This document shows positions 5,679 to 60,565 of a stretch of DNA of 64,000 nucleotides, piece by piece. Below the pieces are notes generated by a model. That model saw only the letters and a list, made by a program, of their open reading frames with translations. It was not told the DNA's origin and did not search any database. Source of the DNA: a virus (lineage: Duplodnaviria > Caudoviricetes); IMG/VR virus record IMGVR_UViG_2818991472_000001, positions 1 to 64,000 of that record. One strand, given 5' to 3'. A program made the translations under genes and the position numbers. Numbering within the stretch: position 1 is the stretch's first letter; each line of letters begins with the position of its first letter.

Positions 5679-5712
5679 CACCCCTTCAGGGCCGTCACCG
5701 CCAGCTGAGCAG
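5679..5712 (-). promoter_or_regulatory. degenerate copy of bipartite late motif
   Basis: CACCCCTT-N21-AGCAG on + strand, upstream of 5652 start and directly after a terminator hairpin. Confidence 0.5.
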
Positions 5713-5719
5713 CATCAGT

Positions 5720-5757
5720 GAAGGCCCGGGGTGAAGGCGGCCTTCACCCCGGGCTTC
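5720..5757 (-). terminator. intrinsic terminator hairpin
   Basis: gcccggggtgaaggc / gccttcaccccgggc inverted repeat just after stop of 5769..8273. Confidence 0.7.
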
Positions 5758-5768
5758 GAAGAGCAGCG

Positions 5769-8273
5769 TCAGCCGAGTGCAGCCCAGTACGGGGAGGAGG
5801 ACAGAACGATCGAGCTGATGGCGAGGTTGGACGGCAGCGTCTGCAGGCCGGAGCCGACCGTCCCCCATCGTGCGGTAGCCGCCGTCAGGTTGATGTTCGC
5901 TCCGGCCGCTGAGACGCTCGATCCGCGAGTGAAGGTGGGCAGCGTGGTCCCGTTGGCCAGCAGCGCTACCCAGTAGGACCCGGCCGGAAGAACCACCGGC
6001 CCTCCCACCAGCGCCATGAACTTCGGTCCGCCCGACTGCCACGAGGTCGCCTGGTCGGCGGTCGAACCGACCAGGTTGCCTGTGGCGTCGTACAGCCCCA
6101 CCCAGCACTGACCGGTCGTCAGGCCGCTGCCGCCGGTGACGACCTGCGCGACGATGTTGGTGACGGTCCGGGGAGCCCGAAGAACGATCTTGATCAGCTG
6201 GACGACACCCGCCCCGAAGGCCGAGTTGGCCGTGACCGACCCGGGGTCCTGCGACCAGGCGATCAGACCGTGGTCCGACGGGAGGACGACGTCGGGATTC
6301 AGGACATCGGACACCAGACCACCAGCGCTGGTGAACGCCAGGGACGATGTTGTGACTCTCAGGCCCGGTACGGTGCGTACGGCCTCGGTGCCGGACCGCC
6401 CCTTCTGGTCGGTGACGTTGGGGCCGCGCAGGAGCAGCTCGTTGCCTCCGCCGTCGTGCCAGGGGGTGTCGGTGGCGGCGAGCAGGCCGGACGAGACCGA
6501 CACGTAGCGGCTGTGGTCGGCGTGCACCCCGTACTGGGGCGAGATCCCTCCGCTGGTGCTGCTGTCGTCGGCGCCGACGGTGACGGTGAGGCCGTCAGCG
6601 ACCACCGGGCAGGTCGTGCTGATCACAGCCAGACCGGCCCAGCCGCCCCCACCGCCCGCGCCGTTGTTACGGCCGTCGCGGTACAGGCGGCAACCGCTGA
6701 GGTTGACCACGGAGCCGTCTCCGGCCACGATCCGGATGCCGTGCTGGTTGCTGCGATCGGTCGTGCAGCCGACCAGCCCCACGGGACCGAGCCCTGGGGC
6801 GATCAGGAACCCGTCCTTCCCGGACCAGCCCGACCGGCAGGCCGAGAGGGTGGCACCGCCCGGGTTCGACAGGGACCAGCCGTTCCCGGTCGCGCCGAGC
6901 GACTCGCAGTCCACGAACGTGCTGTTCAGCGGACTGGCCAGGTTGAAGCCGTCCAGAGCGGCCTTGTAGACCACCACTCGCTGCGCCCGAAGTCCGATCG
7001 GAGTGTTGGCACCGAACGCATCCACGACACTGCGAAGACCGTGCCCGCTCACACGCTGGATGTTCAGGCCACGTACCTGGACGCCCTGGACGTTGCCCGC
7101 CAGCTGCACGCCGTCCACGGCGGGCGAGGCGGCCAGGTCCCGGCCGTCGATCGTCAGATCGCAGATCTGCTGCTCCCGGGACAGCTCGGAGTACGAGCCC
7201 ATCACCTGGTCCACGATCCTCACCACCGCGTTGCCCGAGAAGATCGGCAGCGGGCGCAGCGCAGTCGCCGGTACGACGTCGGCGGCCTGCTGCTCGATGT
7301 TGGCGTGCGACCCGAGCAGGGTGACCGACGGCGGGATGTAGAGCGGGGCGGAGGTGCGGTAGACGGCCGGGAGGAGGTAGACCGTGCCCCCCTTGGGGCA
7401 GACGTTGAGCGCGGCCTGCAGGGCCGCCGTGTCGTCGGAGACCCCGTCAGCCTTTGCGCCGAAGTCGCGCGGACTGACCCACCGCAGCACGGTGACCGTT
7501 CCCGCACCCCCGGCCGAGCCGCCTGCTGTGCCGCTGTCGCTGGTGGGCGCGGCCTGGGTGGCGAGCAGACCGCCGTCGCTGACCTGCAGGAGCCAGCGCT
7601 TGCCTCCGGCGCTGCGGACGACGAACGAACCCGCGACCTCGACCATGTCGGTCGGGGTGCCGAGCATGACCTGGCCAGGTGCGGTGGTGGCCGCCCCGGC
7701 GCCGACGGCCGTGGACGAGGCGTGCCGGGCGGTGGCCGCGAAGCCGAGCGCCGTTGACGAGGGCGCGCTGGCTCCGGCGCTCGCGCCCACGGCGGTTGCC
7801 CCGGCTGCGCTAGCCGAGGTGTTCGCTCCGTAGGCGCTGGACACGTCGGCCAGGGCCTGCGCCGCCCGCCCGGCTGCCGCCGAGTCCTTGCCCGTAGCAG
7901 CAGCTGATACACCGGTGGCGGTGGCCCCGACACCGGCGGCGGCAGCGCCGCTGCCCACCTGCATGGAGTTCGCCCCGGAACCGGCGTGGACGGAGTCGAG
8001 GCCCGGTGCGGTGACGTCCAGATCCTCCCAGAACTCCTCCGGGTTGCCCGGGGAGGTGATGCCGATCTTCACCCGGCTGGGCGCGTCCAGGTAGAAGGAG
8101 ACGTCGCCACCGTTGGTGAAGAACGGGTTGGTCTTCACCGCTCCGGTGCTGCCGTCGGTGTAGATGGTCTCGGAGATCTGGACGTTGGTGCCCGCCTCCA
8201 AGATGCGCACCTGTGCCTGCGGGACACGGTTGCCCGCGCTGTCGAGGTACGGGCGGGAGAAGTGCGCCCTCAC
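5769..8273 (-). CDS. tailspike/fibre: YadA-like repeats, pectate-lyase-like beta-helix, C-terminal beta domain
   Basis: VSPRDFGAKADGVSDDTAALQAAL..GGTVYL motif (Pectate_lyase_3 start) followed by beta-helix repeats; shared fibre N-terminus. Confidence 0.8.
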   Translation of the reverse strand: MRAHFSRPYLDSAGNRVPQAQVRILEAGTNVQISETIYTDGSTGAVKTNPFFTNGGDVSFYLDAPSRVKIGITSPGNPEEFWEDLDVTAPGLDSVHAGSGANSMQVGSGAAAAGVGATATGVSAAATGKDSAAAGRAAQALADVSSAYGANTSASAAGATAVGASAGASAPSSTALGFAATARHASSTAVGAGAATTAPGQVMLGTPTDMVEVAGSFVVRSAGGKRWLLQVSDGGLLATQAAPTSDSGTAGGSAGGAGTVTVLRWVSPRDFGAKADGVSDDTAALQAALNVCPKGGTVYLLPAVYRTSAPLYIPPSVTLLGSHANIEQQAADVVPATALRPLPIFSGNAVVRIVDQVMGSYSELSREQQICDLTIDGRDLAASPAVDGVQLAGNVQGVQVRGLNIQRVSGHGLRSVVDAFGANTPIGLRAQRVVVYKAALDGFNLASPLNSTFVDCESLGATGNGWSLSNPGGATLSACRSGWSGKDGFLIAPGLGPVGLVGCTTDRSNQHGIRIVAGDGSVVNLSGCRLYRDGRNNGAGGGGGWAGLAVISTTCPVVADGLTVTVGADDSSTSGGISPQYGVHADHSRYVSVSSGLLAATDTPWHDGGGNELLLRGPNVTDQKGRSGTEAVRTVPGLRVTTSSLAFTSAGGLVSDVLNPDVVLPSDHGLIAWSQDPGSVTANSAFGAGVVQLIKIVLRAPRTVTNIVAQVVTGGSGLTTGQCWVGLYDATGNLVGSTADQATSWQSGGPKFMALVGGPVVLPAGSYWVALLANGTTLPTFTRGSSVSAAGANINLTAATARWGTVGSGLQTLPSNLAISSIVLSSSPYWAALG

Positions 8274-8312
8274 TGGCTCTCCTTCACTCGGGGTTCACTG
8301 AACAAAGGGCGG

Positions 8313-11300
8313 TCATGAGATGGGCTGGACCAGGGCCTCGGCCAGAGAGAACGCGTCCACGCTCGGCGGCGCGGTCTCGCTGGTCCCCTCGACGACCGTG
8401 TGTGGGAGCACGGCCGCATCGGGCGGGGTGACGGTCGGCCAGATGCGGTCCCGCCACAGCCGGGAGGCTGCCCACCACCACTGGGGGATGGGCTCGTGCC
8501 ACGCCTGGAAGTACGGGTCCTGGTGGACCGGCGGGTAGTAGTCGGCCAGGGCGCTCGCGGCCCCGGCGGCCTGCAGGGTGTCCTGGTAGGGGATGGCCCC
8601 GGCCAGGCTCGCGTACCACGGCCGGATGACCACAGCGGAGACCGAGGTGCTCGGCGCGTAGCTGGTCACCCGCCACCGCAGCTGCGTGCCGCCGGTGAGG
8701 TCGTTGACCGGGAGGTCCGGGAAGACCAGGGCCCCGCGCGGGTCGTTGCGGATGTCCAGGACCGGGAACCAGTTCGCGCCGCCGTCCCTGCTGACCTCCC
8801 ACAGCAGCGGGTCGGCGAACAGGGCGAGGCTGTCCACCAGCCACTCCCCTGTGCCGCTCGCGCCGTCCTGGACGATCCGCGCCCGGACGTCGCGTACCCG
8901 CTCGACGTCGAAGTCCTGGGCCACGGTGTCCCAGGAGCCCAGAGCCTCCGCCTGGTCCCAGGTCGAGGCCATGCCCGTGATCACGTCCCAGGTCCTGATG
9001 CCGGTGGTCACCGTGTCGTGCATCGAGTAGTCGACGTACCACTCGGCCACCTGGCTGTCGGCCGGGGCGTCGGCCTCGGCCAGGATGCGCCCGTCGCCGT
9101 TGACCAGCTGCAGCGACACAGGTGTGGCGAGAGGCTTGGTGAAGACCACCCGAGCCGCCGCGAAGAGCCGACCGTGGGACGGCGGCTGCACCCCTCGTAC
9201 GGACTCGATGCCGCCGCTGGTGGACTCGACCTGGGACTGCTCCAGCTCGTTCCACTGCGGCCGGTTCGGGTCAGGGTTGGCATCCTCGATGGCGGCCCAC
9301 GACCGGAACCGGCTCTCCATCGCGTCCCATGACGACCCGGCGTGGCCCCGGGTGACCTGGACCGTCCGGCTCAAGCTGCTCTCGTAGACGTCCGAGGTGG
9401 TCAGCGTCGCGTCACCGACCGGGCGCCAGTGCCGAAGGGTCGGGTCGGAGAACTCCGGGTCGTCGAGCAGCTGGAGCGCGTCGCTCTGCGTCGTGGCGAT
9501 CTGGATGCCGAGCACCTTGCGTCGCGACACGTACGGGACCGACGTCACCCGGACTCCGGCCGTGCCTACGAGATCCGGTGTGACGAGGCCGCCTTCGGTG
9601 AAGACCCAGCTGTCCGGCTTCCCATCGGTGAATCCGTCCAGGTGAGAGGTGTCGTGGAGCAGCTCGACGTACTGCTCGGTGTCCTGCTGGGCGGCCGGGC
9701 TGGTTCGGAACGCCCGTACGCTCTTCACCGCCACGGTGTACGCCGTCTTGGCGTCCATCGTCAGCTCCACCACCCGGTACCTGTGGACCCCGGTGGCCAG
9801 CCACCGGGGAGCCTGGGTGCCGGGGAGCGGCATGAACCTCCACGGCTTCGCTGTACCGGAGCTGCGAAGGCGCTGGGCGTCCTGCGGGTCGACGGCGAAC
9901 AGGGCTTCGGTGGGCAGGTACGGCTGGCCGTCGTACGGCGACGTCGCGGTCCGCTGCGGCGAGTCCTGGAAGGCCACCCCGATACTCCTGGCCGGGCCCA
10001 GGCCCGGCGGGGAGGCCGTCGACGCCTGGTCCGACGCTCGTGCCGTCGTGGCGATGCCTCCGCCAGTGTCGCCCGGGAAGAGCTGCACCCGTACGACGGG
10101 CGACCCGGTCGGGTTGACCAGCATCGGCTGAAGGTTGGTGAATTCCAGCTTGAGGAAGCTGGCCTTCACCGGCCTGAAGGTGAACGCCTGCTTCTGCAGC
10201 TGGAAGTCGCCGTTGATCGGCGTCCACACCGTCGTGCTGTAGTCCACACCAGGGCCGCCGATGAGACCGAGCGGGCACACCGAGTCGTCCCCCGGCGTCA
10301 CCAGCGACCCATCGAAGCGCAGCAGGGCGTTCGCGCACGTGTGCGTCGATGCGTCGACCGCTCCGCCGGGTGTCATGCCGTAGCCGGTCGGATCGCCCCA
10401 GTAGGCGTCGATGGCGCCGATGTCCTGGGCGCGGCCCTGCGCCAGGAACAGCGACGTGATCCGAAGCATCCCCCCAGGGCCACCCGAAACCGGGCCGCCC
10501 AGCATCACTACCGGCCCCGAGGACGTCGGCCCCGATGATCCGATCGGCTGGATGCGGGTGCTCCAGGGAGTGCGCACCGTCAGGTTCTCGCCGTCGAAGG
10601 CGACGGCCCACGGCACGCGCGCGTTGAAGCCGAAGTCGATCGGATCGAGGGAGACCGTCAGCTGGCCGAGCGTGGCCGACACCGCCCCGCTGCTGACGCA
10701 GACGGCCAGGCCACCGGTGTCCAAGATCGTGTGCAGGGTGCCGGAGACGGACGTGAACTGCGGCTGAACGATCCCGGCGACCAGGAACGGCTTCGTGGTG
10801 TCGAACTGCAGCGCCGCTCCGTCGATGCGTACCGCATCGGCGGAGCCCGGCAGGTACAGCCCCTCCTTGCTCGCCTGAACTCCGTCATTAACTGCTCTGA
10901 CCTGCGGAAATCCGAGCGGTTCACTGATCGGCGCGAACCTGAAGACTCCCCAGTCCTTCACTGAATCAACCGGGGCGTAGTACAGGTTCACGGTCGGCCC
11001 GGAGGTCAGCGGATCGCACTCGATCCGGTCGATGACCTGCGGCTTGCCGTCAGCCGAGCGGACGTCGAGGTACAGGTTGACCACCGCGTTCGGCACCGGC
11101 TGCGGAGCACAGCGCCACACCCCTCCGTCACCAAGAACAGAGGCTGCACGGCTACGTCGCACCACGTAGTCGATCGCGGAACCCAGTAGGTCCTGGCCCT
11201 GGGCAATCGGAGTGGTGTGACTGGCATCGGTCATCGGCAGCCACGGCATGTCGCTCGGGGAGGCGAGCCGGTAGCTGAGTGAGACGTCCTTGACCCCGAG

Positions 11301-15850: not shown

Positions 15851-16279
15851 TCACAGGTTCACCGTCCGGGCGATCTTCACCATGGCTCCGGCGCGGGTCT
15901 TCAGCTCCACGGCCACCACCACGGTGTCGAAGGACGGGATGGTGGTGATCGAGACGATCTGGCTGACCACGTCGCCGTAGTCGTACCGGGAGCGAGCGCC
16001 CGACAGGGCGTCTGTGGCGAGATCAGCGGCCTGGCCGTCGACGTACTGCTGCAGCACCCGGACGACCTCGGAGCGCACCAGCAGCTCCAACTCGGCGTCG
16101 AGGGGCTGGCCGATGTACGAGCTGAGAACCGATCCCCAGGTGGGGTGGTACTGGTCGTTGCCGTACGGTTCGGCCAGGGCGAGCGCCAGGTCCTGGCGGA
16201 TGCGAGACGCGCCGGTGAGCATGCCGTATCCGCCCTCCCCCACGATGAGATCCCCGCCTGACAGGGCCAGTCCTTTCAC
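15851..16279 (-). CDS. baseplate wedge initiator (gp25/GpW-like)
   Basis: IRQDL..AL.EPYG...YHPTWGS motif; position next to baseplate J. Confidence 0.8.
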   Translation of the reverse strand: MKGLALSGGDLIVGEGGYGMLTGASRIRQDLALALAEPYGNDQYHPTWGSVLSSYIGQPLDAELELLVRSEVVRVLQQYVDGQAADLATDALSGARSRYDYGDVVSQIVSITTIPSFDTVVVAVELKTRAGAMVKIARTVNL

Positions 16280-19513: not shown

Positions 19514-19548
19514 CACCCCTTCACGGGGCGGAGGTGGTGAAGTGACAG
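19514..19548 (-). promoter_or_regulatory. bipartite late motif
   Basis: CACCCCTT-N22-GACAG. Confidence 0.7.
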
Positions 19549-19560
19549 TGCCTTCACTGA

Positions 19561-19584
19561 AAAGTGTTCCGCGCGGAACACTTT
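19561..19584. repeat. parS-like palindrome 1
   Basis: perfect 24-bp palindrome AAAGTGTTCCGCGCGGAACACTTT. Confidence 0.75.
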
Positions 19585-19606
19585 CGACAGGGGAGGGGGC
19601 CAGGGC

Positions 19607-24903: not shown

Positions 24904-24938
24904 CACCTCTTGAGGGGCCGCAGAACAGGGCGAGACAG
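24904..24938 (-). promoter_or_regulatory. bipartite late motif (variant)
   Basis: CACCTCTT-N22-GACAG upstream of tube gene. Confidence 0.65.
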
Positions 24939-25098: not shown

Positions 25099-25932
25099 AT
25101 GACGATCACCCTCCCCGAACCGGCCGCACCACCCGACGAGGAAAGCACCGAAACCCGTGTGATCACGGTCGGTGTTCTCAAGGGGGGAACCGGGAAGTCC
25201 CGCCTGGCCATGCTCATCGCCCTCATCCTGGCCGTCGTCTTCCGGCGCCGTGTGGTCGTCTTCGATGCCGACTCGGCCAGCCAGACGTCGATGAAGTGGA
25301 TGGACAAGGCGAAGCTCCGTGGCTACGCATGGCCCTTCGAGGTCATCCGGCACCCCTTCGAGACCCTGGACCAGGAGATCGACAAGATCCGGGCCAGGGG
25401 CGATGTGGATGACATCATCGTGGACGTCGGCGGCGGCAACCTCGCCTCGTTCCTGGCAGCGGTCAGGCGCTCGAACATCCTCCTGGTCCCCCTGTGTCCC
25501 GACGAGGGGGACATCGAGCAGGCCCCGCAGACCCGGGAAGCGGCTCTCATGGGCGCCGCACGCAACACCGTCGGCGGCGTGGTCATGTTCTACCTTCTCA
25601 ACCGGTGCAGCATGACCAGCAACGACCGAGTCAGCGCCCGCAACGTTCTCCTCGACGAGCGCCAGGCTGACGGCCCGTTCCCGCTGTGCGACATCGAGTT
25701 GCCGCAGCTGGTTGCCTACCAGCGTTCCTTCGGACGCATCCCGGGGCAGAAGGTGCCCGACGATGCTGAGGACCACATCCGCTGGAAGGACCTGAGCAAC
25801 TTCGCCCCCCTCCTGATCGAGACTGGTGTGCTCACTGCTCAACAAGCCGTCGATGCCAGTCTGATCACCCACCGCGAGCTGAAGGACGCCAACATCTTGA
25901 CCCCCGAAGAGCTTGAGGCGGTGACGGTCTGA
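25099..25932 (+). CDS. parA: ParA family partition ATPase
   Basis: Deviant Walker A KGGTGKS, VVVFDAD, IIVDVGG; ATG25099 with GAGGA RBS. Confidence 0.9.
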   Translation: MTITLPEPAAPPDEESTETRVITVGVLKGGTGKSRLAMLIALILAVVFRRRVVVFDADSASQTSMKWMDKAKLRGYAWPFEVIRHPFETLDQEIDKIRARGDVDDIIVDVGGGNLASFLAAVRRSNILLVPLCPDEGDIEQAPQTREAALMGAARNTVGGVVMFYLLNRCSMTSNDRVSARNVLLDERQADGPFPLCDIELPQLVAYQRSFGRIPGQKVPDDAEDHIRWKDLSNFAPLLIETGVLTAQQAVDASLITHRELKDANILTPEELEAVTV

Positions 25933-28419: not shown

Positions 28420-28453
28420 CACCCCTTCGCGGAGACGACTGGACGGCAGACAG
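28420..28453 (-). promoter_or_regulatory. bipartite late motif
   Basis: CACCCCTT-N21-GACAG. Confidence 0.75.
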
Positions 28454-32442: not shown

Positions 32443-32476
32443 CACCCCTTGAGCACCGCAGCACGGTCCGGGACAG
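32443..32476 (-). promoter_or_regulatory. bipartite late motif
   Basis: CACCCCTT-N21-GACAG. Confidence 0.75.
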
Positions 32477-34017: not shown

Positions 34018-34051
34018 CACCCCTTCCGGGGCGCTGAGGGAGTCTGGACAG
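34018..34051 (-). promoter_or_regulatory. bipartite late motif
   Basis: CACCCCTT-N21-GACAG, abutting a terminator palindrome. Confidence 0.75.
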
Positions 34052-34089
34052 CACGGCGCCCCTCCCCCGGCCGGGGGAGGGGCGCCGTG
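34052..34089 (-). terminator. perfect 38-bp palindrome, probable terminator
   Basis: cacggcgcccctcccccgg/ccgggggaggggcgccgtg just after stop 34101. Confidence 0.7.
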
Positions 34090-34100
34090 GCGCAAGGGCT

Positions 34101-35192
34101 TCACGCCACGGTGTAGGAGGCGGACGGGGCGCTGAGCGCGTTCTGCAGCGCGCCGATCGCCTTGACGGTGAAGGTCACCTGGGCCGCCACCGTCAGGCCG
34201 GGTACGTTGGCCGAGACGACGGCACTGCCCACGTGGATGGTCTGCCCGGAGGACGCGGTGACGTCGTACCCGCCTGCCGGAGCCGGGGTGGAGGGGGCCC
34301 AGGACACTGTGGCCGTGCCCGCAGTCCCCTGGGGCGCGACGGTCGGCTGGCCCGGCAGAGTCGGCGCGCCCCACGATCCGGGGACAACCGTGCCGTCCTG
34401 ACGGTAGATCGGGTTCACGGCGTTGGCCGCTGTCAGCCCCCCCGCTGCCACTTCGTCGGAGTTGGTCGCCACCGCCCCGGACGCGGACCACGGCGACCAC
34501 GGGCCCGTACCGTTGCGGTTCTCCGCCCGTGCCCGGAAGAGGTAGCCCCGGCCGCCGACGACCTGGGTGAACCGAAGGGCCGTGGCGTTCCGACCGGCGT
34601 CAGCGTGGCCCCCGGTGTCGCTCTCGATCTCGTACCGCAGTACCGGGGCGTCGGCCGCTGGGTCTGCGACGGCCACCCACGTCACCACGATCGCCCGGTC
34701 CGCCCCTGCGAGGGTGGGGGCGGCCGGGGCCGCCGGGACCAGAACCGATCCCTTCGGCACGGCGCCGATCGACAGCGTCTCCACCGTCCCCGTCACCGGT
34801 GGGGCGTTCGGGTCCGGGCGCGTCGCGCCCTGGCCGTCCGTGGTCTTCAGATCCGTCCGGGTCGTGTCCAGCACGGACCCGGGCACCCCGGCAGCGTTCG
34901 GCTTCTGGTACTTCTGCTGGACGTCCACCACGGTTCCCAGCGTGGTCTCCCGCTGACCCGTCACAGCGGTGCTGGAGGGCTTCCAGCCGCCAGGCGCAGC
35001 TGCGACCCTCGCCACCCCGGTGGTGTCGACGAAGGACGCGGGGACAGGGCCCGTGGGGGCCTGCCCACGGGTACCGATCGCCCCGTCGGTTTCGACCACG
35101 GCCCCGGACGTGTCCGCCGTGGTCACCCGGGGACCGGTCTTGCCCGCGACGCCCTCGGTGTCGAGCGTGCTGGTCACATCACCGCTTGCCAC
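34101..35192 (-). CDS. fibronectin type III domain virion protein
   Basis: Two Fn3 repeats (VTW..Y.FRARA.N..G.GPWS; VSW..Y.V..FTVKA). Confidence 0.75.
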   Translation of the reverse strand: MASGDVTSTLDTEGVAGKTGPRVTTADTSGAVVETDGAIGTRGQAPTGPVPASFVDTTGVARVAAAPGGWKPSSTAVTGQRETTLGTVVDVQQKYQKPNAAGVPGSVLDTTRTDLKTTDGQGATRPDPNAPPVTGTVETLSIGAVPKGSVLVPAAPAAPTLAGADRAIVVTWVAVADPAADAPVLRYEIESDTGGHADAGRNATALRFTQVVGGRGYLFRARAENRNGTGPWSPWSASGAVATNSDEVAAGGLTAANAVNPIYRQDGTVVPGSWGAPTLPGQPTVAPQGTAGTATVSWAPSTPAPAGGYDVTASSGQTIHVGSAVVSANVPGLTVAAQVTFTVKAIGALQNALSAPSASYTVA

Positions 35193-35195
35193 CCC

Positions 35196-35543
35196 TTACT
35201 CCTCACCCTGAGCGCCGCGACGGCGAGTCCGCTTGGCCGGTGTCGCGGGGGCCTCGGCCTCGGCAGCCATCGGCGCCTCGGACTCCTCCTCAACGGTCTC
35301 CGGGACCTCCGGGTCGGATTCCGGGCCGTCCTGCTCCACAGCTTCCGGGTTGCCGCCCTCGGAGTCGCCGTTCTCCACGGGATCGAGGGCGCCCTCCAGG
35401 AGGGGCTCCGGCACGGCATCGGGCAGCTGTACCGGACCTGAGAACGCGGTGGACACGGCGGTCAGATCACCGTGCTCCCCCGCTCCCACGCCGCTCGTGT
35501 CGAGCGTGCCGCTGACCAGAAGCATCTGCTCGTAGTTGCTCAC
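35196..35543 (-). CDS. small acidic protein with basic C-terminus
   Basis: GGAG RBS, tight packing, acidic disordered sequence. Confidence 0.6.
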   Translation of the reverse strand: MSNYEQMLLVSGTLDTSGVGAGEHGDLTAVSTAFSGPVQLPDAVPEPLLEGALDPVENGDSEGGNPEAVEQDGPESDPEVPETVEEESEAPMAAEAEAPATPAKRTRRRGAQGEE

Positions 35544-35915: not shown

Positions 35916-35943
35916 CTCGGTCCTCCCAGGTGGTTGTGTCGGT

Positions 35944-35977
35944 CACCCCTTGCGTGCGGCTGGGTCGGGGAAGACAG
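35944..35977 (-). promoter_or_regulatory. bipartite late motif
   Basis: CACCCCTT-N21-GACAG, abutting a terminator. Confidence 0.75.
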
Positions 35978-35978
35978 C

Positions 35979-36015
35979 AGCGGGCCCCCTGGTGGGAGGT
36001 ACCAGGGGGCCCGCT
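35979..36015 (-). terminator. terminator downstream of major capsid gene
   Basis: agcgggccccctggt / accagggggcccgct 15-bp stem. Confidence 0.7.
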
Positions 36016-36123
36016 ATCGGAGGGTTTCCGGCCTTAGTGGCCCGCTCGGGGCCCCACCACAAAGCCCTTTTCCATTCCTCGGATAAATGGGAGCGGATAA
36101 GGCCAGATTCCGTGGCTCATTTA

Positions 36124-37122
36124 CTACTGCTTTACCACCTGGGCCAGGCCGCGCGGGTTCAGGATGGCGAAGCTAACCATCTCGTCGAAAACCCAGCCCT
36201 TCCAGAAGGACTCGACCTTGTGGTTTTCCTCGACGTCCAGGGAGTAGAGGACGGGGAAAACCCCCAGGAAGTTCGGCTCGGGGGTGAGGAACATCTTTCC
36301 CTGGGGAATGACGATGCTCCGCTGGATCTGGAACTCGCCGAAGGAGGTAATGGTCTCCCCGGCCACCACACGGTCCTTGAAAGCCCAGCCCGTTTGGTTG
36401 ATGTCCCACCGGTACATGTCCCGGAAGTCCATCGGGTTGATGAGAATTCGGGAGGACTGCAGCTCGTGCATGTCGGTCATGGAGACCGCGCTGTAGAAGC
36501 TGCCCGGGGTGAGGTAGCCGGATGCCTCGGTGATCGTGTGGTTGGGGGTAACCACGTGGTCAGCGCGACCGGCGTAGTCCGTGATGGCGGCCTGGAGGAT
36601 CGCGATCAGGCGCGAATCCTCCTGCTTGAGAATTGCCTGCTTGGTTTCGTCCTGCGCCTGCTCGACGACGTTGATTCGCAAGTAGAAAAGGTCTTCCTTG
36701 CGAATTGCCGGGCGGGCGGCAATTCGGAAGAACTTCACGTCGACGCGCTTGCCCTCGAAGGGCGTGATCTTGACTTCGCCCTCGGTCCCGGACATCAGGT
36801 AAGCCTGGCCGAGATCATCCCAGACGTCATACTGGACCGGCGTCCCGGGCGTCACCGGGTCCTCCATGAGGACATTCCTGGTGATTCCCTGGTAGCGCAG
36901 CTTGAGCTGAATCGGGCCGATCATGCCGACACCGAGACGCTTGATGCCGTTGTTTTCGTCCTGAACCACCAGAGCGAGGCGCTTTACCTTCGCTTCATGG
37001 GTGATCGGCGCGGCACCGGCCTTCTGGCTGTTCTCCAGCATCTCGGCGACGTAGGAATCCGAACGCCGGGAGGTGGAGCCCTTCTTGTGCAGCGGGCCAC
37101 CGCTGAGCACGGAAGTGGACAT
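36124..37122 (-). CDS. major capsid protein (Bxz1/cluster C-like HK97 fold)
   Basis: MIGPIQLKLRYQGITRNVL.ED, AILKQED, GWVFDE..FAILNPRG; follows decoration and scaffold genes. Confidence 0.85.
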   Translation of the reverse strand: MSTSVLSGGPLHKKGSTSRRSDSYVAEMLENSQKAGAAPITHEAKVKRLALVVQDENNGIKRLGVGMIGPIQLKLRYQGITRNVLMEDPVTPGTPVQYDVWDDLGQAYLMSGTEGEVKITPFEGKRVDVKFFRIAARPAIRKEDLFYLRINVVEQAQDETKQAILKQEDSRLIAILQAAITDYAGRADHVVTPNHTITEASGYLTPGSFYSAVSMTDMHELQSSRILINPMDFRDMYRWDINQTGWAFKDRVVAGETITSFGEFQIQRSIVIPQGKMFLTPEPNFLGVFPVLYSLDVEENHKVESFWKGWVFDEMVSFAILNPRGLAQVVKQ

Positions 37123-37156: not shown

Positions 37157-37660
37157 TTAGCGCAGGCCGCCGATGGTGATCTTCGAGGGGCTGTTGACCT
37201 TCAGCAGGCGCGCGATCGGCAGCGCCGAGGCACCGGCGGTTCCGGCGGGCACGAGCTTGCCCCGGGTGGCACCGGTGGTCTGGGCGTAGATGAGCTTCTC
37301 CGTGCCGTCACCGACCTCGGTCCAGGTGCCGAGGGAGTCGTCGAACGCGGGGCTGAGGACCTCGAACTCGGCGTCCGGCGCCAGCACCCACACCGCCATG
37401 GCGTTGAGGCCCACTTCGAGCAGCTCGTCGATGCCGTCCCCGCCGATGTAGTGGCCGATGAAGCCGTACGGAGCACCGGTGGCGTTGATGAGGGTGGCCT
37501 GCTCACCGACCGTCTTCATGGCGACCATGCCGGGCCAGATCGGCACGCTGCGGTCCCACGCGGGGTCCAGGAACATGGTCTTGGGGGTGCTCTGCGTGAA
37601 GCCGTAGAGCTGGCGAAACGTCCGCTTCAGGTGGGCCGTGGCGAGACGAGTCCTGATCAT
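37157..37660 (-). CDS. capsid decoration/cement protein
   Basis: IWPGMVAM..G, 167 aa, directly upstream of MCP. Confidence 0.65.
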   Translation of the reverse strand: MIRTRLATAHLKRTFRQLYGFTQSTPKTMFLDPAWDRSVPIWPGMVAMKTVGEQATLINATGAPYGFIGHYIGGDGIDELLEVGLNAMAVWVLAPDAEFEVLSPAFDDSLGTWTEVGDGTEKLIYAQTTGATRGKLVPAGTAGASALPIARLLKVNSPSKITIGGLR

Positions 37661-37745: not shown

Positions 37746-37779
37746 CACCCCTTGCGAGAGCCGCAGAGCCCGCAGACAG
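37746..37779 (-). promoter_or_regulatory. bipartite late motif
   Basis: CACCCCTT-N21-GACAG upstream of decoration-MCP genes. Confidence 0.75.
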
Positions 37780-37855
37780 GGACCAGGGCCACGGAATTTC
37801 CCCACGAACGGACGGAGGCCCCCAGCACCTGCTCGCCGGGGGCCTCGTGCGCGGA

Positions 37856-38828: not shown

Positions 38829-38862
38829 CGCCCCTTCATCGCCGGACGGGCATCGCGACAGG
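38829..38862 (-). promoter_or_regulatory. bipartite late motif
   Basis: CGCCCCTT-N21-GACAG, partly inside protease 3' end. Confidence 0.7.
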
Positions 38863-41257: not shown

Positions 41258-41291
41258 CGCCCCTTCCGGTCCTGGGAGGCCGTGCAGACAG
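41258..41291 (-). promoter_or_regulatory. bipartite late motif
   Basis: CGCCCCTT-N21-GACAG. Confidence 0.75.
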
Positions 41292-41905: not shown

Positions 41906-41939
41906 CACCCCTTCCGAGGGCCAGCCCGCCTTGGGACAG
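41906..41939 (-). promoter_or_regulatory. bipartite late motif
   Basis: CACCCCTT-N21-GACAG. Confidence 0.75.
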
Positions 41940-46726: not shown

Positions 46727-46760
46727 CGCCCCTTCCCCGCTCAGTCCAGCCACGGGACAG
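46727..46760 (-). promoter_or_regulatory. bipartite late motif
   Basis: CGCCCCTT-N21-GACAG. Confidence 0.7.
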
Positions 46761-48306: not shown

Positions 48307-48341
48307 CACCCCTTGATCCGGTCGGGAACGCGCCCCGACAG
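48307..48341 (-). promoter_or_regulatory. bipartite late motif
   Basis: CACCCCTT-N22-GACAG. Confidence 0.7.
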
Positions 48342-48762: not shown

Positions 48763-48796
48763 CACCCCTTCCTTGGGCCGGGCGCAGGCGGAACAG
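48763..48796 (-). promoter_or_regulatory. bipartite late motif
   Basis: CACCCCTT-N21-AACAG after terminator. Confidence 0.7.
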
Positions 48797-48811
48797 GGAA
48801 GGCCAGGAACG

Positions 48812-48846
48812 CCGGAGGGCCCGCCAGCAGCTGGCGGGCCCTCCGG
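48812..48846 (-). terminator. terminator after endolysins
   Basis: 16-bp stem ccggagggcccgccag/ctggcgggccctccgg. Confidence 0.7.
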
Positions 48847-48860
48847 TCAAGCTCTCCCGA

Positions 48861-49667: not shown

Positions 49668-50714
49668 TCAGTTCGCCGGAACGCGCAGCTGGGCCCAGCT
49701 GGTGGGGCCCGGGATGCCGTCGGCGGCGTCGCCGGAGTAGCCGAGCGAGCGCTGGAAGGCCGCGTAGGACGCCTGGTCGGCCGGGCCCCAGTCGGGGCCG
49801 GGGCCGACGCGGTACTGGGAGAAGCCAAGGGCGACCAGGCGCTGGCCCATCCGGGTGATCACGTCGGAGTGCTGGCCGTCGTGGAAGAAGTCCTGGCCGG
49901 GGAAGGGCTCCAGGGCGGCGTCGAGGAGCTGGTGCAGGGACTGCTCGCCCGGGACGCCGTCGGCCGCCGCTCCGCTGTAGCCCAGGGAGCGCTGGTAGTC
50001 GGCGTAGTTGAGGGTGTCGGCGTCCGTCCAGTCGGGGCCCGGACCGACCTGGTAGTGGCTGCCGAAGCCGCGTGCCACCAGGGCCTGGCCGACCCGGGTG
50101 ACCTGGTCTCCGTGGGCGCCGTAGCCGTAGACTTGGCCGTCGATCGTGACCTGGTAGCGGGCGATGGCCGGGGTGGGCGGCTGCTCGGGCTGCGGTGCCG
50201 GGGAGGTGCCGCCCGGCCGGGGCGCACCGGCCTGCACCCAGGAGTACAGGGGGTCACCCGGGCACTCGGTCGGGTACCCGTCGCGGTGGCCCTTGATCTC
50301 CGGCCCGGCCCCGTTGGCCTGGAGCAGCTCGATCGCGTCGCGCAGCGCGCCGAGCAGTGCGTCGGTGGGCTGGGTGAGCCCCTCGGAGCCGATCAGGGCG
50401 ACGACGGCGTAGTGGTCCCGGTTGAGCTGCTGGTTCCCGTTGGCCCCGGTGCGCTTGCCGATGCCACGGCCCTCCAGCACGTAACCGTGCTGGCACGAGG
50501 CGTAGTTGTACGCGACGTCTACCCAGTTCTCGGTCTTGTTGGCGAGGTGGCTGGCCCGGATCGACTGCCACTCCTGGATGCACCGGCTGTGGTCGCCGAG
50601 CAGGTCGGTGGAGACCGGAGTGCCCTCGTAGTGAATCTTGACGCCCTGGGTGGTCGGCTGGTCGGCCGCCGCCGAGGCGGGCCAGCCCAGCTGGGCGCGG
50701 GTGATGAGCTGCAT
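49668..50714 (-). CDS. endolysin 1: Amidase_2 plus two Streptomyces-type PG-binding repeats
   Basis: Same amidase motifs; two Y.VGPGPDW..AD...YA..QRSLGYSG.AADG.PG repeats. Confidence 0.9.
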   Translation of the reverse strand: MQLITRAQLGWPASAAADQPTTQGVKIHYEGTPVSTDLLGDHSRCIQEWQSIRASHLANKTENWVDVAYNYASCQHGYVLEGRGIGKRTGANGNQQLNRDHYAVVALIGSEGLTQPTDALLGALRDAIELLQANGAGPEIKGHRDGYPTECPGDPLYSWVQAGAPRPGGTSPAPQPEQPPTPAIARYQVTIDGQVYGYGAHGDQVTRVGQALVARGFGSHYQVGPGPDWTDADTLNYADYQRSLGYSGAAADGVPGEQSLHQLLDAALEPFPGQDFFHDGQHSDVITRMGQRLVALGFSQYRVGPGPDWGPADQASYAAFQRSLGYSGDAADGIPGPTSWAQLRVPAN

Positions 50715-50742: not shown

Positions 50743-50776
50743 CACCCCTTCCGGAGGTCTGCTGCCCCTGGGACAG
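50743..50776 (-). promoter_or_regulatory. bipartite late motif
   Basis: CACCCCTT-N21-GACAG. Confidence 0.75.
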
Positions 50777-55742: not shown

Positions 55743-55776
55743 CACCCCTTCCGGGTGGCGGGCAGGCGGCGAACAG
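55743..55776 (-). promoter_or_regulatory. bipartite late motif
   Basis: CACCCCTT-N21-AACAG. Confidence 0.7.
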
Positions 55777-57472: not shown

Positions 57473-57475
57473 CGC

Positions 57476-57592
57476 TCAGTTCCCCCCGTAGATGACGTAC
57501 GGCACGAACCAGGCGGTCAGCGCGAGCCAGCACAGGGCCGCGCACAGCCCGGCGCAGGCGCTCACCAGGAGCGGCCAGAGCTTCTCCTTCAT
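57476..57592 (-). CDS. 38-aa single-TM protein
   Basis: GGAGGGG RBS, ATG57592, hydrophobic helix. Confidence 0.55.
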   Translation of the reverse strand: MKEKLWPLLVSACAGLCAALCWLALTAWFVPYVIYGGN

Positions 57593-57602
57593 CGGCCCCT
57601 CC

Positions 57603-58541
57603 TCAGGCTCGGAAGAGCGGCAGTTCAGGCGGACCGGCCGGACGCGGACGCGGAACGTGCGGCGGCGCCTGGTGGCTGAAGCCCGGCCCGGCCGCCGGAG
57701 CGGACGGCGGGGCCACCGGGGACTGCGACTCGGGGTGGCTGAACGTGGCCTCCGGGTCCGTCGGCAGGTGCAGCTGCACCGGCCCGGACGGCTGCGACAT
57801 CCCGTCCTCGAACGACACCTGCGGCGCCGGGCCGGTCGACCTCGGCGCGCTGTCCGCACCGGGAAGGTCCGAGAACGACGGTGCTGAAGCCGGACCGGAC
57901 GGCTGCACCGGGGTGTCCGGCTTCGGCGCGTCCGAGAACACCGCCGGAGACGGCCCGCCACCGCCCGTACCGCCGCCACCGGCCGACGGAGCCGCACTGC
58001 CGCCTCCGGCCGAGGGCGTGCCCGGGAGCTGGTCCATGGACGGCTTCCAGTGCTTCGCCCGGTCAGTGAACGGGCCATCCGCGACGTTGCCGAAGTTCTC
58101 GTACGCGAGCGGGTACGCGGTCGCCATCTTCGCGTGCTGCTCCGCCGCAGCCTCGGCCAGCTCCAGGCAGCGCGCCAGCGGCAGCCCGGGGTTGTCGGCC
58201 GCCGCCCGCGCCGCGAGCTTCGCCACCGCCGCCACCCGGGCACTGTCGTCCTGCCGCACCGGCGGCGGCACGCTGGCGGCGCGGGCCTCGCTCAGCAGCT
58301 TCCAGCGCCGCACCAGGTCCTGCTCCAGGGCCTCCACCGGGTACCCGCGCTGAGCCGCCGCCCGCCGCAGCGGCTCGGCCGCCAGCGCCAGCCGGTGCAG
58401 CGCGTCCCGCTCGTCCACGGCTGCCGACAGCAGCGGCCACACCGACACCTCGACGTCCTGCAGCGCCGCGCTGCGGGCCAGCTGCTCCTGCTCGGCCTCC
58501 AGGTCCCGGGCCGCGTTGTTCCACATCATGTCCGCGAACAT
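57603..58541 (-). CDS. hypothetical head-region protein, Pro-rich C-terminus
   Basis: ATG58541 overlapping upstream stop. Confidence 0.6.
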   Translation of the reverse strand: MFADMMWNNAARDLEAEQEQLARSAALQDVEVSVWPLLSAAVDERDALHRLALAAEPLRRAAAQRGYPVEALEQDLVRRWKLLSEARAASVPPPVRQDDSARVAAVAKLAARAAADNPGLPLARCLELAEAAAEQHAKMATAYPLAYENFGNVADGPFTDRAKHWKPSMDQLPGTPSAGGGSAAPSAGGGGTGGGGPSPAVFSDAPKPDTPVQPSGPASAPSFSDLPGADSAPRSTGPAPQVSFEDGMSQPSGPVQLHLPTDPEATFSHPESQSPVAPPSAPAAGPGFSHQAPPHVPRPRPAGPPELPLFRA

Positions 58542-60517
58542 CAGCTCTGCTCCCCGTTCCGCTCCTGCAGCAGCCCGGCCTGCACCCGACGTCGGAACGC
58601 CGCCGCCGACGCGGGCAGCGCGTACTGAGGCGGCGTCATGCCGCTGTCCGGCAGCGTCTGCACCACACCCGGCGAGTCCACGCCGCGCGAGGCCGGAACC
58701 ACCGGCGCCCCCGTCGGAGCCGCTCCGTTGTACGGCGACGGCCCACCGGCCGCCGCCGCGTCCATCCCGCCTGCCAGCGGCCCCGGCCGTCCGGGCCCGT
58801 TGATCGGCGTCGACCCCGACGGGTCCGCCGACGTCCCCGGCGCGGTCGTGTCCATCTGCAGCGTCGTCGCCGCCTGCGCCTGCAGGTACGTGCCGTCCGT
58901 CGGCAGGCCGTGCTCGGCCGCCACCTGGTGGGTGAACCGGCGGTGCAGCGCGATCCGCTGGCCCAGCGCCGGAGCCCGACCGGCCAGCCGCTGGTGCTCC
59001 TTGATCCACTCCCCGCGCTGCGCCGGGTGGTCGGTCAGCCCGGCGTAGATCCCGGCCTCCATCTCCGCCGTCCCCGCCAGCACCAGCGGAGTCCCCGGCC
59101 GCCACCGCATCGCGTACCGGTACCCCCGCTGGAAGTCCGGGTGCTGCATCTCCTGACGGGTCGCCACGTGCCGCGAGGCGTACACCTGCTGCGGCTTCTT
59201 CGTGCCCTGCCCGTTGTCGCCCCCCAGGCTCACCGGCACGTCCTGGCCCACGGAGGCGGGCTGCGCCGAGGTGTACGCATCCACGTACGACCGCGCCGCG
59301 TGCCCGTCGGAGAACGACGGCGCCTGCCCGGCCGGGTCCTTGCCGTCAGCCGCGCCCTGCGCGGCCGTACCCGGCGCAGCGGGCGGCGTGGACGCCGGGG
59401 TGTTGGCGATGTTCGGCTGCACCGTCTGGTGCGGGTGGCTCCACTGGTCGGCCTGCACCTGCCGACCGGCCGTGGTGTGCTGCGCAGGGCGGGCCGGTAC
59501 GCCGCCGGGGACGGCGTGGCCGCCCTCGTCGTGCTCTTCGCCGCTCATCTCCCACGGGAACATCACCTGCTCCGGCAGCGGGGTCGGGGCGGGGTGGTCA
59601 TGGACGTCGATGGCCTGCTGGATCTGCGGCAGCCCGGAGGCGGCCTGGGCCCGCCGGGGCACGTCCCCGCCGTCCTGGTGGCCGCCGAGCTGCTCGGGAC
59701 TGCCCTGGCCGCCGTCTCCGGCCGGAGCGGGGGACGGCCCGTTACCGCCGCCGGGCGGGTTCCAGCTCAGCTCGTCGGTGGTGGAGTGCCCGCCCGGCTT
59801 CTCCGGGGTGCCCTGGCCGCCGTTGCCGGACATGATCTCCTGCAGCAGCGGGTTCCGCTCGGAGGTCTCGGTGCCGACGGAGCCGGAGTTCAGCTCGTGC
59901 ACGGGCGGAGCGAAGTTGTCGAAGACGTCGGTCGGCAGCTCGGTCGGCTTGTTCGTCACGCCGTCCGGGGCGGTGGTCTGCTGGATCTGGTCCAGGCCCG
60001 AGCCCGCCTGGGCGCGCAGGAACGCGGCGTAGTCGGTGAAGACCTGGACGGCCTCCTCCCGGCCAGCGCCGTACCCGGCGGCCACCCGGTGGGCCAGCCC
60101 CTTGGCCTGCTCGGTGAACTCGGCCTCGTCGGCCCGGACTTCAGGCGACAGCTGGGAGAACCACAGCCCTGCCTGCGCGACGATCGCCGACCGGTCGACC
60201 TCGGGTTCGCCGAGACCGGCCAGCCAGTCGCTGGCGGAGCTGGTGCGCTCGAACGTCGGGGCCGGGGTGAGGGTCTCGGTCACCACGGTGGCCGCCCAGT
60301 CGATCTCGCGTTCCCGGGCGGCGTCCACGGCGGCCGTGCGGTCCATCTCGTCGAGCTGGGCGACCAGCCGGGCCTGCGCCGCCAGGGTCGGGGCGGCGTT
60401 GATGGCCCGCAGGATCGCGCCCCGGTCCTTGGGGGTCGTCACAATCTCCTCCAGTGCGGCTGCGGCAAGGTCGGCGGAGGAGAGGCGACCAAGCCAACGC
60501 GACAGGCGACGCAGCAT
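58541..60517 (-). CDS. large Pro/Gly-rich head-region (internal/scaffold-like) protein
   Basis: GGGAGG RBS downstream of late motif; internal repeat A.SGL.QIQQ. Confidence 0.6.
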   Translation of the reverse strand: MLRRLSRWLGRLSSADLAAAALEEIVTTPKDRGAILRAINAAPTLAAQARLVAQLDEMDRTAAVDAAREREIDWAATVVTETLTPAPTFERTSSASDWLAGLGEPEVDRSAIVAQAGLWFSQLSPEVRADEAEFTEQAKGLAHRVAAGYGAGREEAVQVFTDYAAFLRAQAGSGLDQIQQTTAPDGVTNKPTELPTDVFDNFAPPVHELNSGSVGTETSERNPLLQEIMSGNGGQGTPEKPGGHSTTDELSWNPPGGGNGPSPAPAGDGGQGSPEQLGGHQDGGDVPRRAQAASGLPQIQQAIDVHDHPAPTPLPEQVMFPWEMSGEEHDEGGHAVPGGVPARPAQHTTAGRQVQADQWSHPHQTVQPNIANTPASTPPAAPGTAAQGAADGKDPAGQAPSFSDGHAARSYVDAYTSAQPASVGQDVPVSLGGDNGQGTKKPQQVYASRHVATRQEMQHPDFQRGYRYAMRWRPGTPLVLAGTAEMEAGIYAGLTDHPAQRGEWIKEHQRLAGRAPALGQRIALHRRFTHQVAAEHGLPTDGTYLQAQAATTLQMDTTAPGTSADPSGSTPINGPGRPGPLAGGMDAAAAGGPSPYNGAAPTGAPVVPASRGVDSPGVVQTLPDSGMTPPQYALPASAAAFRRRVQAGLLQERNGEQS

Positions 60518-60531
60518 CGTGGACCTCCCTC

Positions 60532-60565
60532 CGCCCCTTCCCACCGGGCAGAGGCGGCCGGACAG
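60532..60565 (-). promoter_or_regulatory. bipartite late motif
   Basis: CGCCCCTT-N21-GACAG. Confidence 0.75.

Follow-up and report, generated by a model that had tools for sequence, protein, structure and literature searches.

Late genes and copies of the motif

The window analysed here is the whole stretch of 64,000 nucleotides corresponding to bases 1-64000 of contig C8, a contractile-tailed Streptomyces phage-plasmid of 155,259 bp and 69.6% GC. Its late genes, assigned by PHROGs to baseplate, hub, tube, sheath, scaffold/capsid, protease, endolysin and portal functions, are preceded by copies of a two-box signal. In short form this signal reads CTGTC (box 1), a spacer of about 21 bases and AAGGGGTG (box 2); the full consensus is T-S-CTGTC, followed by 21 (20-22) bases without conservation, a C-rich stretch and AAGGGGTGA. 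An earlier note on this DNA had listed 17 clear copies in a single orientation, and all of them are present, on the minus strand. They are given below with weaker elements and neighbouring hairpins.

5679-5712, minus strand: weak copy, CTGCT-N21-AAGGGGTG (box 2 perfect), 19.8 bits
16293-16327, minus strand: copy, spacer 22; precedes a gp25-like baseplate gene (15851-16279; phrog_2669 baseplate protein)
19514-19548, minus strand: copy, spacer 22; precedes the gene of an 840-aa hub/virion protein with a lysin domain
about 19550-19597: perfect 11-bp hairpin directly upstream of the 19514 copy
24904-24938, minus strand: copy (AAGAGGTG), spacer 22; precedes the gene of a tube-like virion protein (phrog_2756)
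25351-25385, minus strand: possible weak copy, CTTGTC-N22-AAGGGGTG, 16.9 bits; antisense to plus-strand partition genes; absent from the earlier list
28420-28453, minus strand: copy, spacer 21; precedes the tail sheath gene (phrog_2839)
32443-32476, minus strand: copy, spacer 21; precedes a 154-aa gene with no assigned function
34018-34051, minus strand: copy, spacer 21; box 1 abutted by a very strong hairpin (about 34050-34097, -43.7 kcal/mol)
35190-35197, minus strand: AAGGGGTG lacking box 1, 14 bits; at a stop/start gene junction
35944-35977, minus strand: copy, spacer 21; directly after the terminator-like hairpin behind the major capsid gene
about 35977-36018: this terminator-like hairpin, -36 kcal/mol
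37746-37779, minus strand: copy, spacer 21; precedes a scaffold-like gene (37157-37660), then the major capsid gene (36124-37122)
about 37814-37849: hairpin near the 37746 copy
38829-38861, minus strand: copy (AAGGGGCG), spacer 20; box 2 overlaps the stop codon of the protease-fusion gene, the copy lying in the 3' end of that gene
41258-41291, minus strand: copy, spacer 21; precedes a head maturation protease fusion gene (phrog_18299)
41906-41939, minus strand: copy, spacer 21; top score, 30.2 bits; precedes a 97-aa gene
46727-46760, minus strand: copy, spacer 21; precedes a 143-aa gene
48307-48341, minus strand: copy, spacer 22; precedes a 509-aa gene (relative of ScottMcG gp93)
48763-48796, minus strand: copy (CTGTT), spacer 21; a strong hairpin (about 48807-48854, -40 kcal/mol) lies ahead of it
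50743-50776, minus strand: copy, spacer 21; precedes the endolysin gene (49668-50714; phrog_1493)
55743-55776, minus strand: copy (CTGTT), spacer 21; precedes the portal gene (phrog_2833)
60532-60565, minus strand: copy (AAGGGGCG), spacer 21; precedes a 658-aa gene

The spacer tally first reported (13 of 21 nt and four of 22 nt) has to be corrected: 12 copies have 21 nt, four (16293, 19514, 24904 and 48307) have 22 nt and the copy at 38829 has 20 nt. The spacer sequence is indeed not conserved. Two degenerate copies had also been proposed. The one at 5679 can be kept as a weak member; it lies after a hairpin and ahead of the ribosome-binding site and ATG of a 539-aa gene, whose orthologue in plasmid pRLB1-9.1 likewise carries a copy. 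The element at 35190 is probably a look-alike composed of a ribosome-binding site and a GTG start rather than a member of the motif, since the next gene probably starts at this GTG.

Replicon and strand specificity

The pattern CTGTY-N20-22-AAGRGGYG has 17 matches in the window, where 100 dinucleotide shuffles gave 0.03 on average, and all 17 are on the minus strand, which is the gene strand. With the spacer held to 21-22 nt, this strict pattern occurs 17 times on C8 (16 copies in the window and one at C8:130459, before the large terminase gene), never on the other C8 strand and never in the other eight contigs (9.9 Mb, 73% GC). With a two-block weight matrix, 18 sites of the C8 minus strand score more than 23 bits; the top plus-strand site of C8 reaches 15.5 bits, and the top host sites, every one of them imperfect, reach 19-24 bits.

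Strong copies are confined to the region from 16 to 61 kb and to the position ahead of the large terminase gene, despite the fact that nearly the whole 155-kb replicon is minus-stranded. The weight-matrix scan placed no copy in front of any plus-strand gene, in agreement with the earlier remark on the plus-strand accessory genes. Early genes bear another repeat, TTGCGT-N18-TAGATT. An origin of the motif as a mobile repeat or by chance is ruled out because the spacers are unrelated and the positions orthologous.

Genes and signals around the copies

Box 2 lies 13-85 nt from the start codon in the window, and the ribosome-binding sites are separate from it; both the distances and the PHROGs assignments agree with the initial description of copies ahead of late genes with their own Shine-Dalgarno sequence. 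The copies occupy the gap from the upstream stop codon or strong hairpin to the downstream ribosome-binding site, and no other recurrent element is found in these gaps. At 28420 box 1 starts 2 nt after the stop codon of the upstream gene, and at 38829 the copy lies within the end of the protease-fusion gene, which bears out the reported overlap with upstream coding sequences. Terminator-like hairpins directly precede several copies. Strong upstream hairpins are present at 5-6 of the 18 sites only, and over all 18 sites the upstream hairpin energies do not differ from those at random positions. A 5' hairpin test, in which windows at increasing distance from box 2 were folded, did not discriminate.

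Conservation in relatives

Plasmid pRLB1-9.1 carries 22 copies, all of them on the gene strand and each 11-56 nt ahead of an annotated start, and 15-16 of the 18 orthologous positions are kept. The position ahead of orthologous genes is maintained although the proteins of the relatives are only 33-84% identical. In 86 related loci (1.08 Mb) there are 266 copies versus 3 on the opposite strand, and 174 of 226 non-identical sites (77%) have the 21-nt spacer. Strand counts in the complete relatives that have terminal repeats are 7:0, 0:15 and 0:11; the last of these genomes has a GC content of 46% and retains CTGTC-N21-AAAGGGTA. Motif-bearing relatives span 46-70% GC, and the variants found are AAGGGGTG, AAAGGGTA, CCTGTGAAGGGGTG and CCCCRGAAGG.

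About 20 relatives share the layout seen behind the capsid gene at 35944, a hairpin followed by the motif. In the orthologous leader that follows the capsid gene, box 2 is immediately succeeded by a hairpin showing compensatory changes. The shortest distance from box 2 to a start codon is 11-14 nt, which leaves just enough room for a ribosome-binding site. Two lineages depart from the pattern: G002 lacks CTGTC and has a single-box variant fixed 3-4 nt ahead of the ribosome-binding site, and G001 lacks both motif variants. For ScottMcG, a simple scan of AAG-type spacing showed no enrichment, which appeared only with a pattern refined after the sites had been inspected.

Promoter reading and its alternatives

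Conserved boxes, near-fixed spacing, a single orientation and a position upstream of genes are features of a two-box promoter of the sigma-70 family, and all are present here. The motif probably represents the late promoters of this family, used by host RNA polymerase that a replicon-encoded factor would redirect. The case is circumstantial and includes specificity for the replicon, specificity for one strand and restriction to virion, lysis and packaging genes. The core of the host RNA polymerase would start transcription at box 2 or immediately downstream of it, the simplest choice being the invariant purine in position 9 of the box. CCTGTC would then be the -35 element (-35 to -30), the -10 region would consist of the C-rich stretch and AA, and GGGGTG would be the discriminator. 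Specificity for the motif would come from a replicon-encoded protein, since the host genome lacks such sites.

It had been argued that the spacer is too long for a sigma-70 -35/-10 pair. This argument is unsafe because the assumed purine start puts CCTGTC at -35 to -30, and part of the conserved block may be the discriminator. For a start at the invariant purine that directly follows AAGGGGTG, CCTGTC and the hexamer from -12 to -7 would be 17 bp apart, within the range of 16-19 bp; this range is missed if AAGGGGTG itself is taken as the -10 element. A scan for the sigma-70 consensus found no site in the 20-kb late region and none in the early region that holds TTGCGT-N18-TAGATT. As it misses these visible early elements, the scan is insensitive here and proves nothing.

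An action of the motif at the RNA level is unlikely. It would then be transcribed and serve either as a ribosome standby site or translation enhancer, in the manner of the Start-Associated Sequences (SAS) of Cluster K mycobacteriophages, or as a processing site giving monocistronic late messages. Its constant sense orientation upstream of starts would suit such a role, as would the G002 single-box variant at its fixed distance from the ribosome-binding site. SAS elements resemble the motif in being phage-specific, of single orientation and missing from the host (PMC3203893). Box 2, if transcribed, could also pair with the host 16S tail GGAUCACCUCCUUUCU, with a single bulge and an energy of -12.4 kcal/mol (-8.7 for GGAGG), but this anti-Shine-Dalgarno pairing is not retained in relatives, where AAAGGGTAG gives -8.5 and the G002 form -6.9. 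Furthermore, the 13-85 nt between box 2 and start codons that have their own ribosome-binding sites, and the restriction to late genes, do not fit a general translation signal, and several copies stand right behind terminator-like hairpins that would stop transcripts coming from upstream. RNA structure would not be expected to give a second box at a constant 21 nt either. Among 174 sites with a 21-nt spacer no covariation stands out between or around the boxes (largest z about 4 among several thousand pairs), so that the conserved columns do not show the covarying pairs of a structured RNA; with no base-pair covariation between them, the boxes are probably read as DNA.

It is quite improbable, on the present analysis, that the motif is instead bound by a maintenance repressor that would keep late genes off in the plasmid state, in the manner of the stoperators of Cluster A mycobacteriophages, the true promoters lying elsewhere. 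A plasmid-prophage with ParA/ParB genes must silence about 50 kb of lethal genes, and numerous asymmetric sites that all face the same way with respect to transcription and are missing from the host would be compatible with this task. Against it, the two boxes are dissimilar and therefore not the half-sites of a repressor dimer; stoperators are also found in early and replication regions, which have no copies here; and the copies occupy the very place that a promoter would require, between strong hairpins and ribosome-binding sites, with no other recurrent element there to take this part.

Finally, recognition by one of the about 50 alternative sigma factors of the host, with any phage factor dispensable, is very improbable: the host has 51 sigma region 2 matches, no complete sigma factor was found on the replicon and some actinobacterial ECF groups have -35 elements containing TGTC, but a host sigma factor normally has its own regulon, 9.9 Mb of host DNA hold no strict copy and only imperfect weight-matrix matches, and the motif persists in relatives whose GC content ranges from 46 to 70% and whose hosts must differ.

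A candidate factor

For the favoured promoter reading, the earlier note had supposed a phage-encoded sigma factor, activator or RNA polymerase outside the window. Outside the window there is indeed a candidate, an orphan sigma-region-4-like protein of 130 aa (C8:133289-133681), but neither an RNA polymerase nor a complete sigma factor was found on the replicon. The protein has a sigma-4-type helix-turn-helix (Pfam, 22 bits). Its AlphaFold model has a pLDDT of 84, and 23 of the top 26 fold matches are to sigma region 4 (Z 5.5-7.2, all matches being below Z 8 and Foldseek E-values above 0.1). It is present in 10 of 10 related records tested, among them ScottMcG, where it corresponds to the N-terminal part of gp211 in a syntenic position; Bxz1-like phages have it at the same gene position. 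The ScottMcG match was found by profile only, tblastn with the single protein having given no match in the phage collection. Longer homologues (279 and 306 aa) have no annotated extra domain.

The 130-aa protein is the leading candidate as reader of box 1, though we would not call it a probable one; it may act as half of a split sigma factor or replace region 4 of the host sigma factor. Its recognition helix shows no visible co-variation with the motif variants, and the protein is still carried by the lineages G002, which lacks CTGTC, and G001, which lacks both motif variants. No match to sigma region 2 was obtained on C8 or in five complete relatives even at E <= 10, a search that highly divergent forms could escape. 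Divergent polymerases would similarly be missed by the searches for a T7-like polymerase (PF00940), which gave no match anywhere, controls included, and for a second beta-prime subunit (PF00623), for which host rpoC was the sole match. Two neighbouring proteins were rejected as sigma factors: the one of 229 aa gave a weak UvsY lead and the one of 210 aa weak small-terminase leads, in both cases with no PDB sequence match.

A wider model, which we hold to be rather doubtful, concerns the Bxz1-like supergroup, comprising Ceeclamvirinae mycobacteriophages, Streptomyces phage-plasmids and low-GC metagenomic relatives. In this late system the orphan sigma-region-4 protein (ScottMcG gp211 family) would read CCTGTY at -35, and a remodelled host sigma factor or an unrecognised region-2 analogue would recognise the -10/discriminator AAnnRGTGA. 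Such a split or appropriated sigma mechanism, if true, would be new for actinophages.

Significance

If confirmed, the motif would provide the first defined late-promoter consensus for the actinobacterial myoviruses and phage-plasmids of about 155 kb, and late operons could be annotated from sequence alone. The family reaches hundreds of metagenomic relatives and probably Bxz1-like mycobacteriophages as well. A literature search (box sequence, Bxz1 promoters, Streptomyces phage-plasmids) found no published description of the motif, with incomplete coverage, so that its novelty is unproven. Confirmation would also supply expression tools with a short, possibly orthogonal promoter absent from the Streptomyces host genome, together with a candidate cognate factor, and a small protein consisting of sigma region 4 only would be a possible new way to redirect actinobacterial RNA polymerase. 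Given the contrast of the motif with the early TTGCGT-N18-TAGATT elements, the temporal switch would be directly testable.

Comparison with known systems

T4 late promoters (TATAAATA) are read by gp55 with gp33 and the sliding clamp; gp55 is region-2-like, and gp33 binds the beta flap in place of region 4, so that the sigma functions are divided among small proteins. As in T4, host promoter signals ahead of virion genes would give way to a consensus peculiar to the phage, and the G002 single-box variant resembles the -35-less layout of T4 late promoters. In contrast, C8 has a conserved second upstream box at a fixed distance and no identified gp55-like protein, and its candidate factor has a DNA-binding region-4 helix-turn-helix, which gp33 lacks. 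At T4 middle promoters, a MotA box at -30 together with AsiA ('sigma appropriation') allows host polymerase to be used. The candidate reading for C8 similarly puts a phage box, to be recognised by a phage protein, in the -35 place, whereas T4 middle promoters keep a normal sigma-70 -10 element; in C8 the downstream block AAGGGGTGA lacks TANNNT. The sigma factors gp28 and gp33/34 of Bacillus phage SPO1 use two-box promoters of phage-specific consensus, and SigO-RsoA of B. subtilis shows that a sigma factor can be divided between two polypeptides. Unlike the C8 system, in which the search in five complete relatives found none, all of these have a recognisable region 2.

The stoperators of Cluster A mycobacteriophages, the sites of L5 gp71, are single 13-bp repressor sites spread over the whole genome in one orientation to transcription. 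The C8 motif shares with them the many asymmetric sites in one orientation, but is made of two unlike boxes and restricted to the late region. SAS elements sit a few bp upstream of the start codon. The SAS/ESAS of Cluster K mycobacteriophages, described along with a mention of stoperators, are 13-bp single boxes (GGGATAGGAGCCC) present in 11-19 copies near gene starts, in one orientation, absent from the host and of unknown function (PMC3203893). SAS contains GGAG, which suggests a role in translation; the C8 motif, rather than a 13-bp box near the start that overlaps the ribosome-binding site, is a two-box signal found 13-85 nt upstream of late genes only.

The replicon and its relatives

The C8 replicon, whose first 64 kb form the window, comprises 155,259 bp at 69.6% GC and belongs to a host assembly of 10 Mb (73% GC) with 51 sigma-factor matches. 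The genes of C8 lie almost exclusively on the minus strand; PHROGs assignments include the baseplate, hub, tube, sheath, scaffold-like protein, major capsid, protease, endolysin, portal and large terminase. Its capsid protein shares 82% identity with the one encoded by pRLB1-9.1, a circular plasmid of Streptomyces sp. RLB1-9 that carries a ParA gene and encodes a ParB-family protein; identity to the capsid proteins of Bxz1-like mycobacteriophages and of myoviruses of Rhodococcus and Gordonia is about 58%. Several metagenomic relatives are true phage genomes, since they possess direct terminal repeats. Some relatives are of low GC content (46% in loci L046 and L047, 50% in L012 and 47% in L013), with capsid proteins 75-80% identical to that of the window, which would imply that the hosts of this family are very different; L012 was binned as Gammaproteobacteria and L013 as Anaerolineales, binning errors being possible.

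A strand-specific motif ahead of late genes

A two-box motif precedes the late genes of C8 and is probably the late promoter of this phage-plasmid family. The pattern CTGTY-N20-22-AAGRGGYG has 17 matches in the window, every one of them on the minus strand, against a mean of 0.03 in dinucleotide shuffles, which bears out the 17 copies in one orientation reported from the sequence alone by the earlier note. Spacers measure 21 nt in 12 copies, 22 nt in four and 20 nt in one (38829), a small correction to the 13 of 21 nt and four of 22 nt given in the earlier note. The strict N21-22 pattern has an additional copy at C8:130459, upstream of the large terminase gene, and is absent from the other C8 strand and from the remaining 9.9 Mb of the genome. 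With a two-block weight matrix, 18 C8 sites scoring 23-30 bits were set apart from the weak ones, and the best matches in the host genome were all imperfect. Taken by itself, box 2 has 26 minus-strand and two plus-strand occurrences.

Weak weight-matrix sites on C8 (box 2 kept, box 1 degenerate)
5679, weak copy
25351, weak copy, minus strand (25351-25385)
119747, weak copy
128307, weak copy
144510, weak copy

A degenerate copy formerly proposed at 35190 is not counted, as it has no box 1 and is located at a stop/start junction. The weak copy at 25351-25385 is antisense to the plus-strand partition genes and might either be a source of antisense transcription in late infection or have arisen by chance.

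The extended consensus reads T-S-CTGTC, 21 unconserved bases with a C-rich end, AAGGGGTGA and then purines. Copies occupy short gaps, the stop codon of the upstream gene often lying 2-12 nt ahead of box 1; the copy at 38829 falls within the 3' end of the preceding gene. A strong hairpin touches box 1 or lies shortly upstream of it at 34018, 35944, 48763, 37746, 19514 and 55743. Start codons follow box 2 after 13-85 nt and have a separate ribosome-binding site. No copy stands ahead of the plus-strand partition and accessory genes of C8, in line with the earlier note as regards the accessory genes.

Conservation and lineage variants

The motif is widely conserved among relatives. In pRLB1-9.1, all 22 weight-matrix matches are on the gene strand, each 11-56 nt ahead of an annotated start, and 15-16 of the 18 motif-preceded C8 genes have an orthologue there that is likewise preceded by the motif (protein identity 33-84%). 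Across 86 loci that surround related capsid genes and total 1.08 Mb, 266 matches were found on the gene strand against three on the opposite one, and the spacer is 21 in 77% of 226 non-identical sites. Whole complete relatives gave strand counts of 7:0, 0:15 and 0:11, with reversed-pattern controls of 0; the last of these is a 46% GC genome with the form CTGTC-N21-AAAGGGTA.

Variants occur in some lineages. In record G004 (contains L068), all 15 copies read CTGTC-N16-CCTGTG-AAGGGGTG (CTGTG in 14, CAGTG in one), so that a second CTGT stands directly ahead of box 2 and the CTGT direct repeats are about two helical turns apart. In G002, a 165-kb relative (loci L114-L122), the upstream box is absent and a single box, gCCCCRGAAGG, replaces the two-box motif (21 on the gene strand, two opposite). 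Eleven of these boxes are followed within about 12 nt, typically after 3-4 nt, by a ribosome-binding site, and some boxes lie immediately downstream of terminator T-runs.

Example single-box sites in G002
6686, single box
79023, single box
96905, single box
139888, single box

Promoter geometry and the level of action

A spacing of 21-22 bp had been judged too long for a -35/-10 pair, an argument that is unsafe because it presupposes that AAGGGGTG is the -10 hexamer. Were transcription to start at the invariant purine immediately 3' of AAGGGGTG, CCTGTC would span -35 to -30, CCnSAA would be the hexamer at -12 to -7, 17 bp apart from CCTGTC, and GGGGTG would be a G-rich discriminator. Three indirect points favour a start at or before this purine: it never varies, a ribosome-binding site opens the shortest leaders (11-14 nt) directly after box 2, and the hairpin of the orthologous post-capsid leaders, which shows compensatory changes, opens at the same place. 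In the relatives (L010-L057; window counterpart 35916-35943) this short hairpin, ACGG...CCGT with variable loops, could be a 5'-terminal transcript stabiliser.

The fixed distance between two unlike boxes and the freedom of the spacer speak for DNA read by a protein, and no column pair among 174 spacer-21 sites shows base-pair covariation. Action at the RNA level, in translation or processing, is a minority reading: box 2 as RNA can pair with the host 16S tail (-12.4 kcal/mol, one bulge), but the box 2 variants of other lineages pair weakly, the distance to start codons is too large and the downstream genes carry their own ribosome-binding sites.

The sequence behind this duplex, AAGGGGTGA in box 2 of the window copies (16293-60565), is complementary to the 3' end of the host 16S rRNA except for one missing A, which may be mere chance or hint at a second function in read-through transcripts.

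A candidate factor

The earlier note suggested a phage factor encoded outside the window. No T7-like polymerase, second beta-prime or sigma region 2 was found on C8, nor any sigma region 2 in five complete relatives even at E <= 10; a candidate does lie outside the window, at C8:133289-133681 (minus strand; L005:8289-8681). This 130-aa protein matches the sigma-70 region 4 helix-turn-helix at 22 bits, under the Pfam cut-off. When its model (pLDDT 84) was put through an all-against-representatives fold search, sigma region 4 domains accounted for 23 of the top 26 rows (Z 5.5-7.2); LuxR/GerE-type domains match less well, and residues 1-60 form a small domain with no fold match. The gene ends the replication/recombination block, about 3 kb ahead of the terminase promoter in transcription order. 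All 10 related records that were tested contain a homologue: the Bxz1-like mycobacteriophage ScottMcG and nine relatives, complete or partial, among them the genome of 46% GC. In ScottMcG the profile match (E 4e-7) is to the N-terminal portion of gp211, which occupies the syntenic position, and residues 66-94 of gp211 give the same Pfam match. Flanking genes are also common to ScottMcG: C8:132343-132975 (gp213), a weak lead to small terminase, and C8:133842-134531 (gp210), a weak lead to UvsY.

Fold, family-wide presence and synteny make this sigma-4-like protein the best candidate reader of box 1, a tentative and rather doubtful assignment because no visible correspondence links its recognition helix to the motif variants and because the protein is kept in G002, which lacks CTGTC, and in the relative G001, which lacks both motif variants. 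A second candidate is a gene of the WhiB family, annotated on pRLB1-9.1.

Comparison with known systems

Early genes of C8 bear a different repeat, TTGCGT-N18-TAGATT/TAGCTT with GTGCACTAG overlapping, an arrangement that resembles a housekeeping-sigma promoter plus operator; C8 would thus have two promoter classes.

Early repeat on C8
73101, minus strand
79901, minus strand
81751, minus strand
83958, minus strand
84958, minus strand
90774, minus strand

The late class may reach into Ceeclamvirinae, as ScottMcG sites suggest. CCTGT-N22-AAnnRGWR occurs six times there, against 0-1 times for any one of the remaining spacings between 14 and 29 and 0 on the other strand, counts whose weight is limited by refinement of the pattern after site inspection. 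The downstream genes are gp85, gp93, a protease fusion, gp102, gp114 and LysA, and three of them (gp93, the protease fusion and LysA) are counterparts of motif-bearing C8 genes.

ScottMcG sites (NC_011269.2), form CCTGTR-N21-AAnnRGWGA
31433, ahead of late gene
40132, ahead of late gene
44194, ahead of late gene
52483, ahead of late gene
60428, ahead of late gene
141580, ahead of late gene

Late promoters that are specific to a phage and read via phage-encoded factors are a well-known kind, as in T4 and SPO1. No description of the present consensus was found in the searchable literature, the coverage of which is incomplete. Among actinophage repeats, the C8 motif comes nearest to the SAS/ESAS of Cluster K (PMC3203893) and the stoperators of Cluster A, and it differs from both in form, position and distribution.
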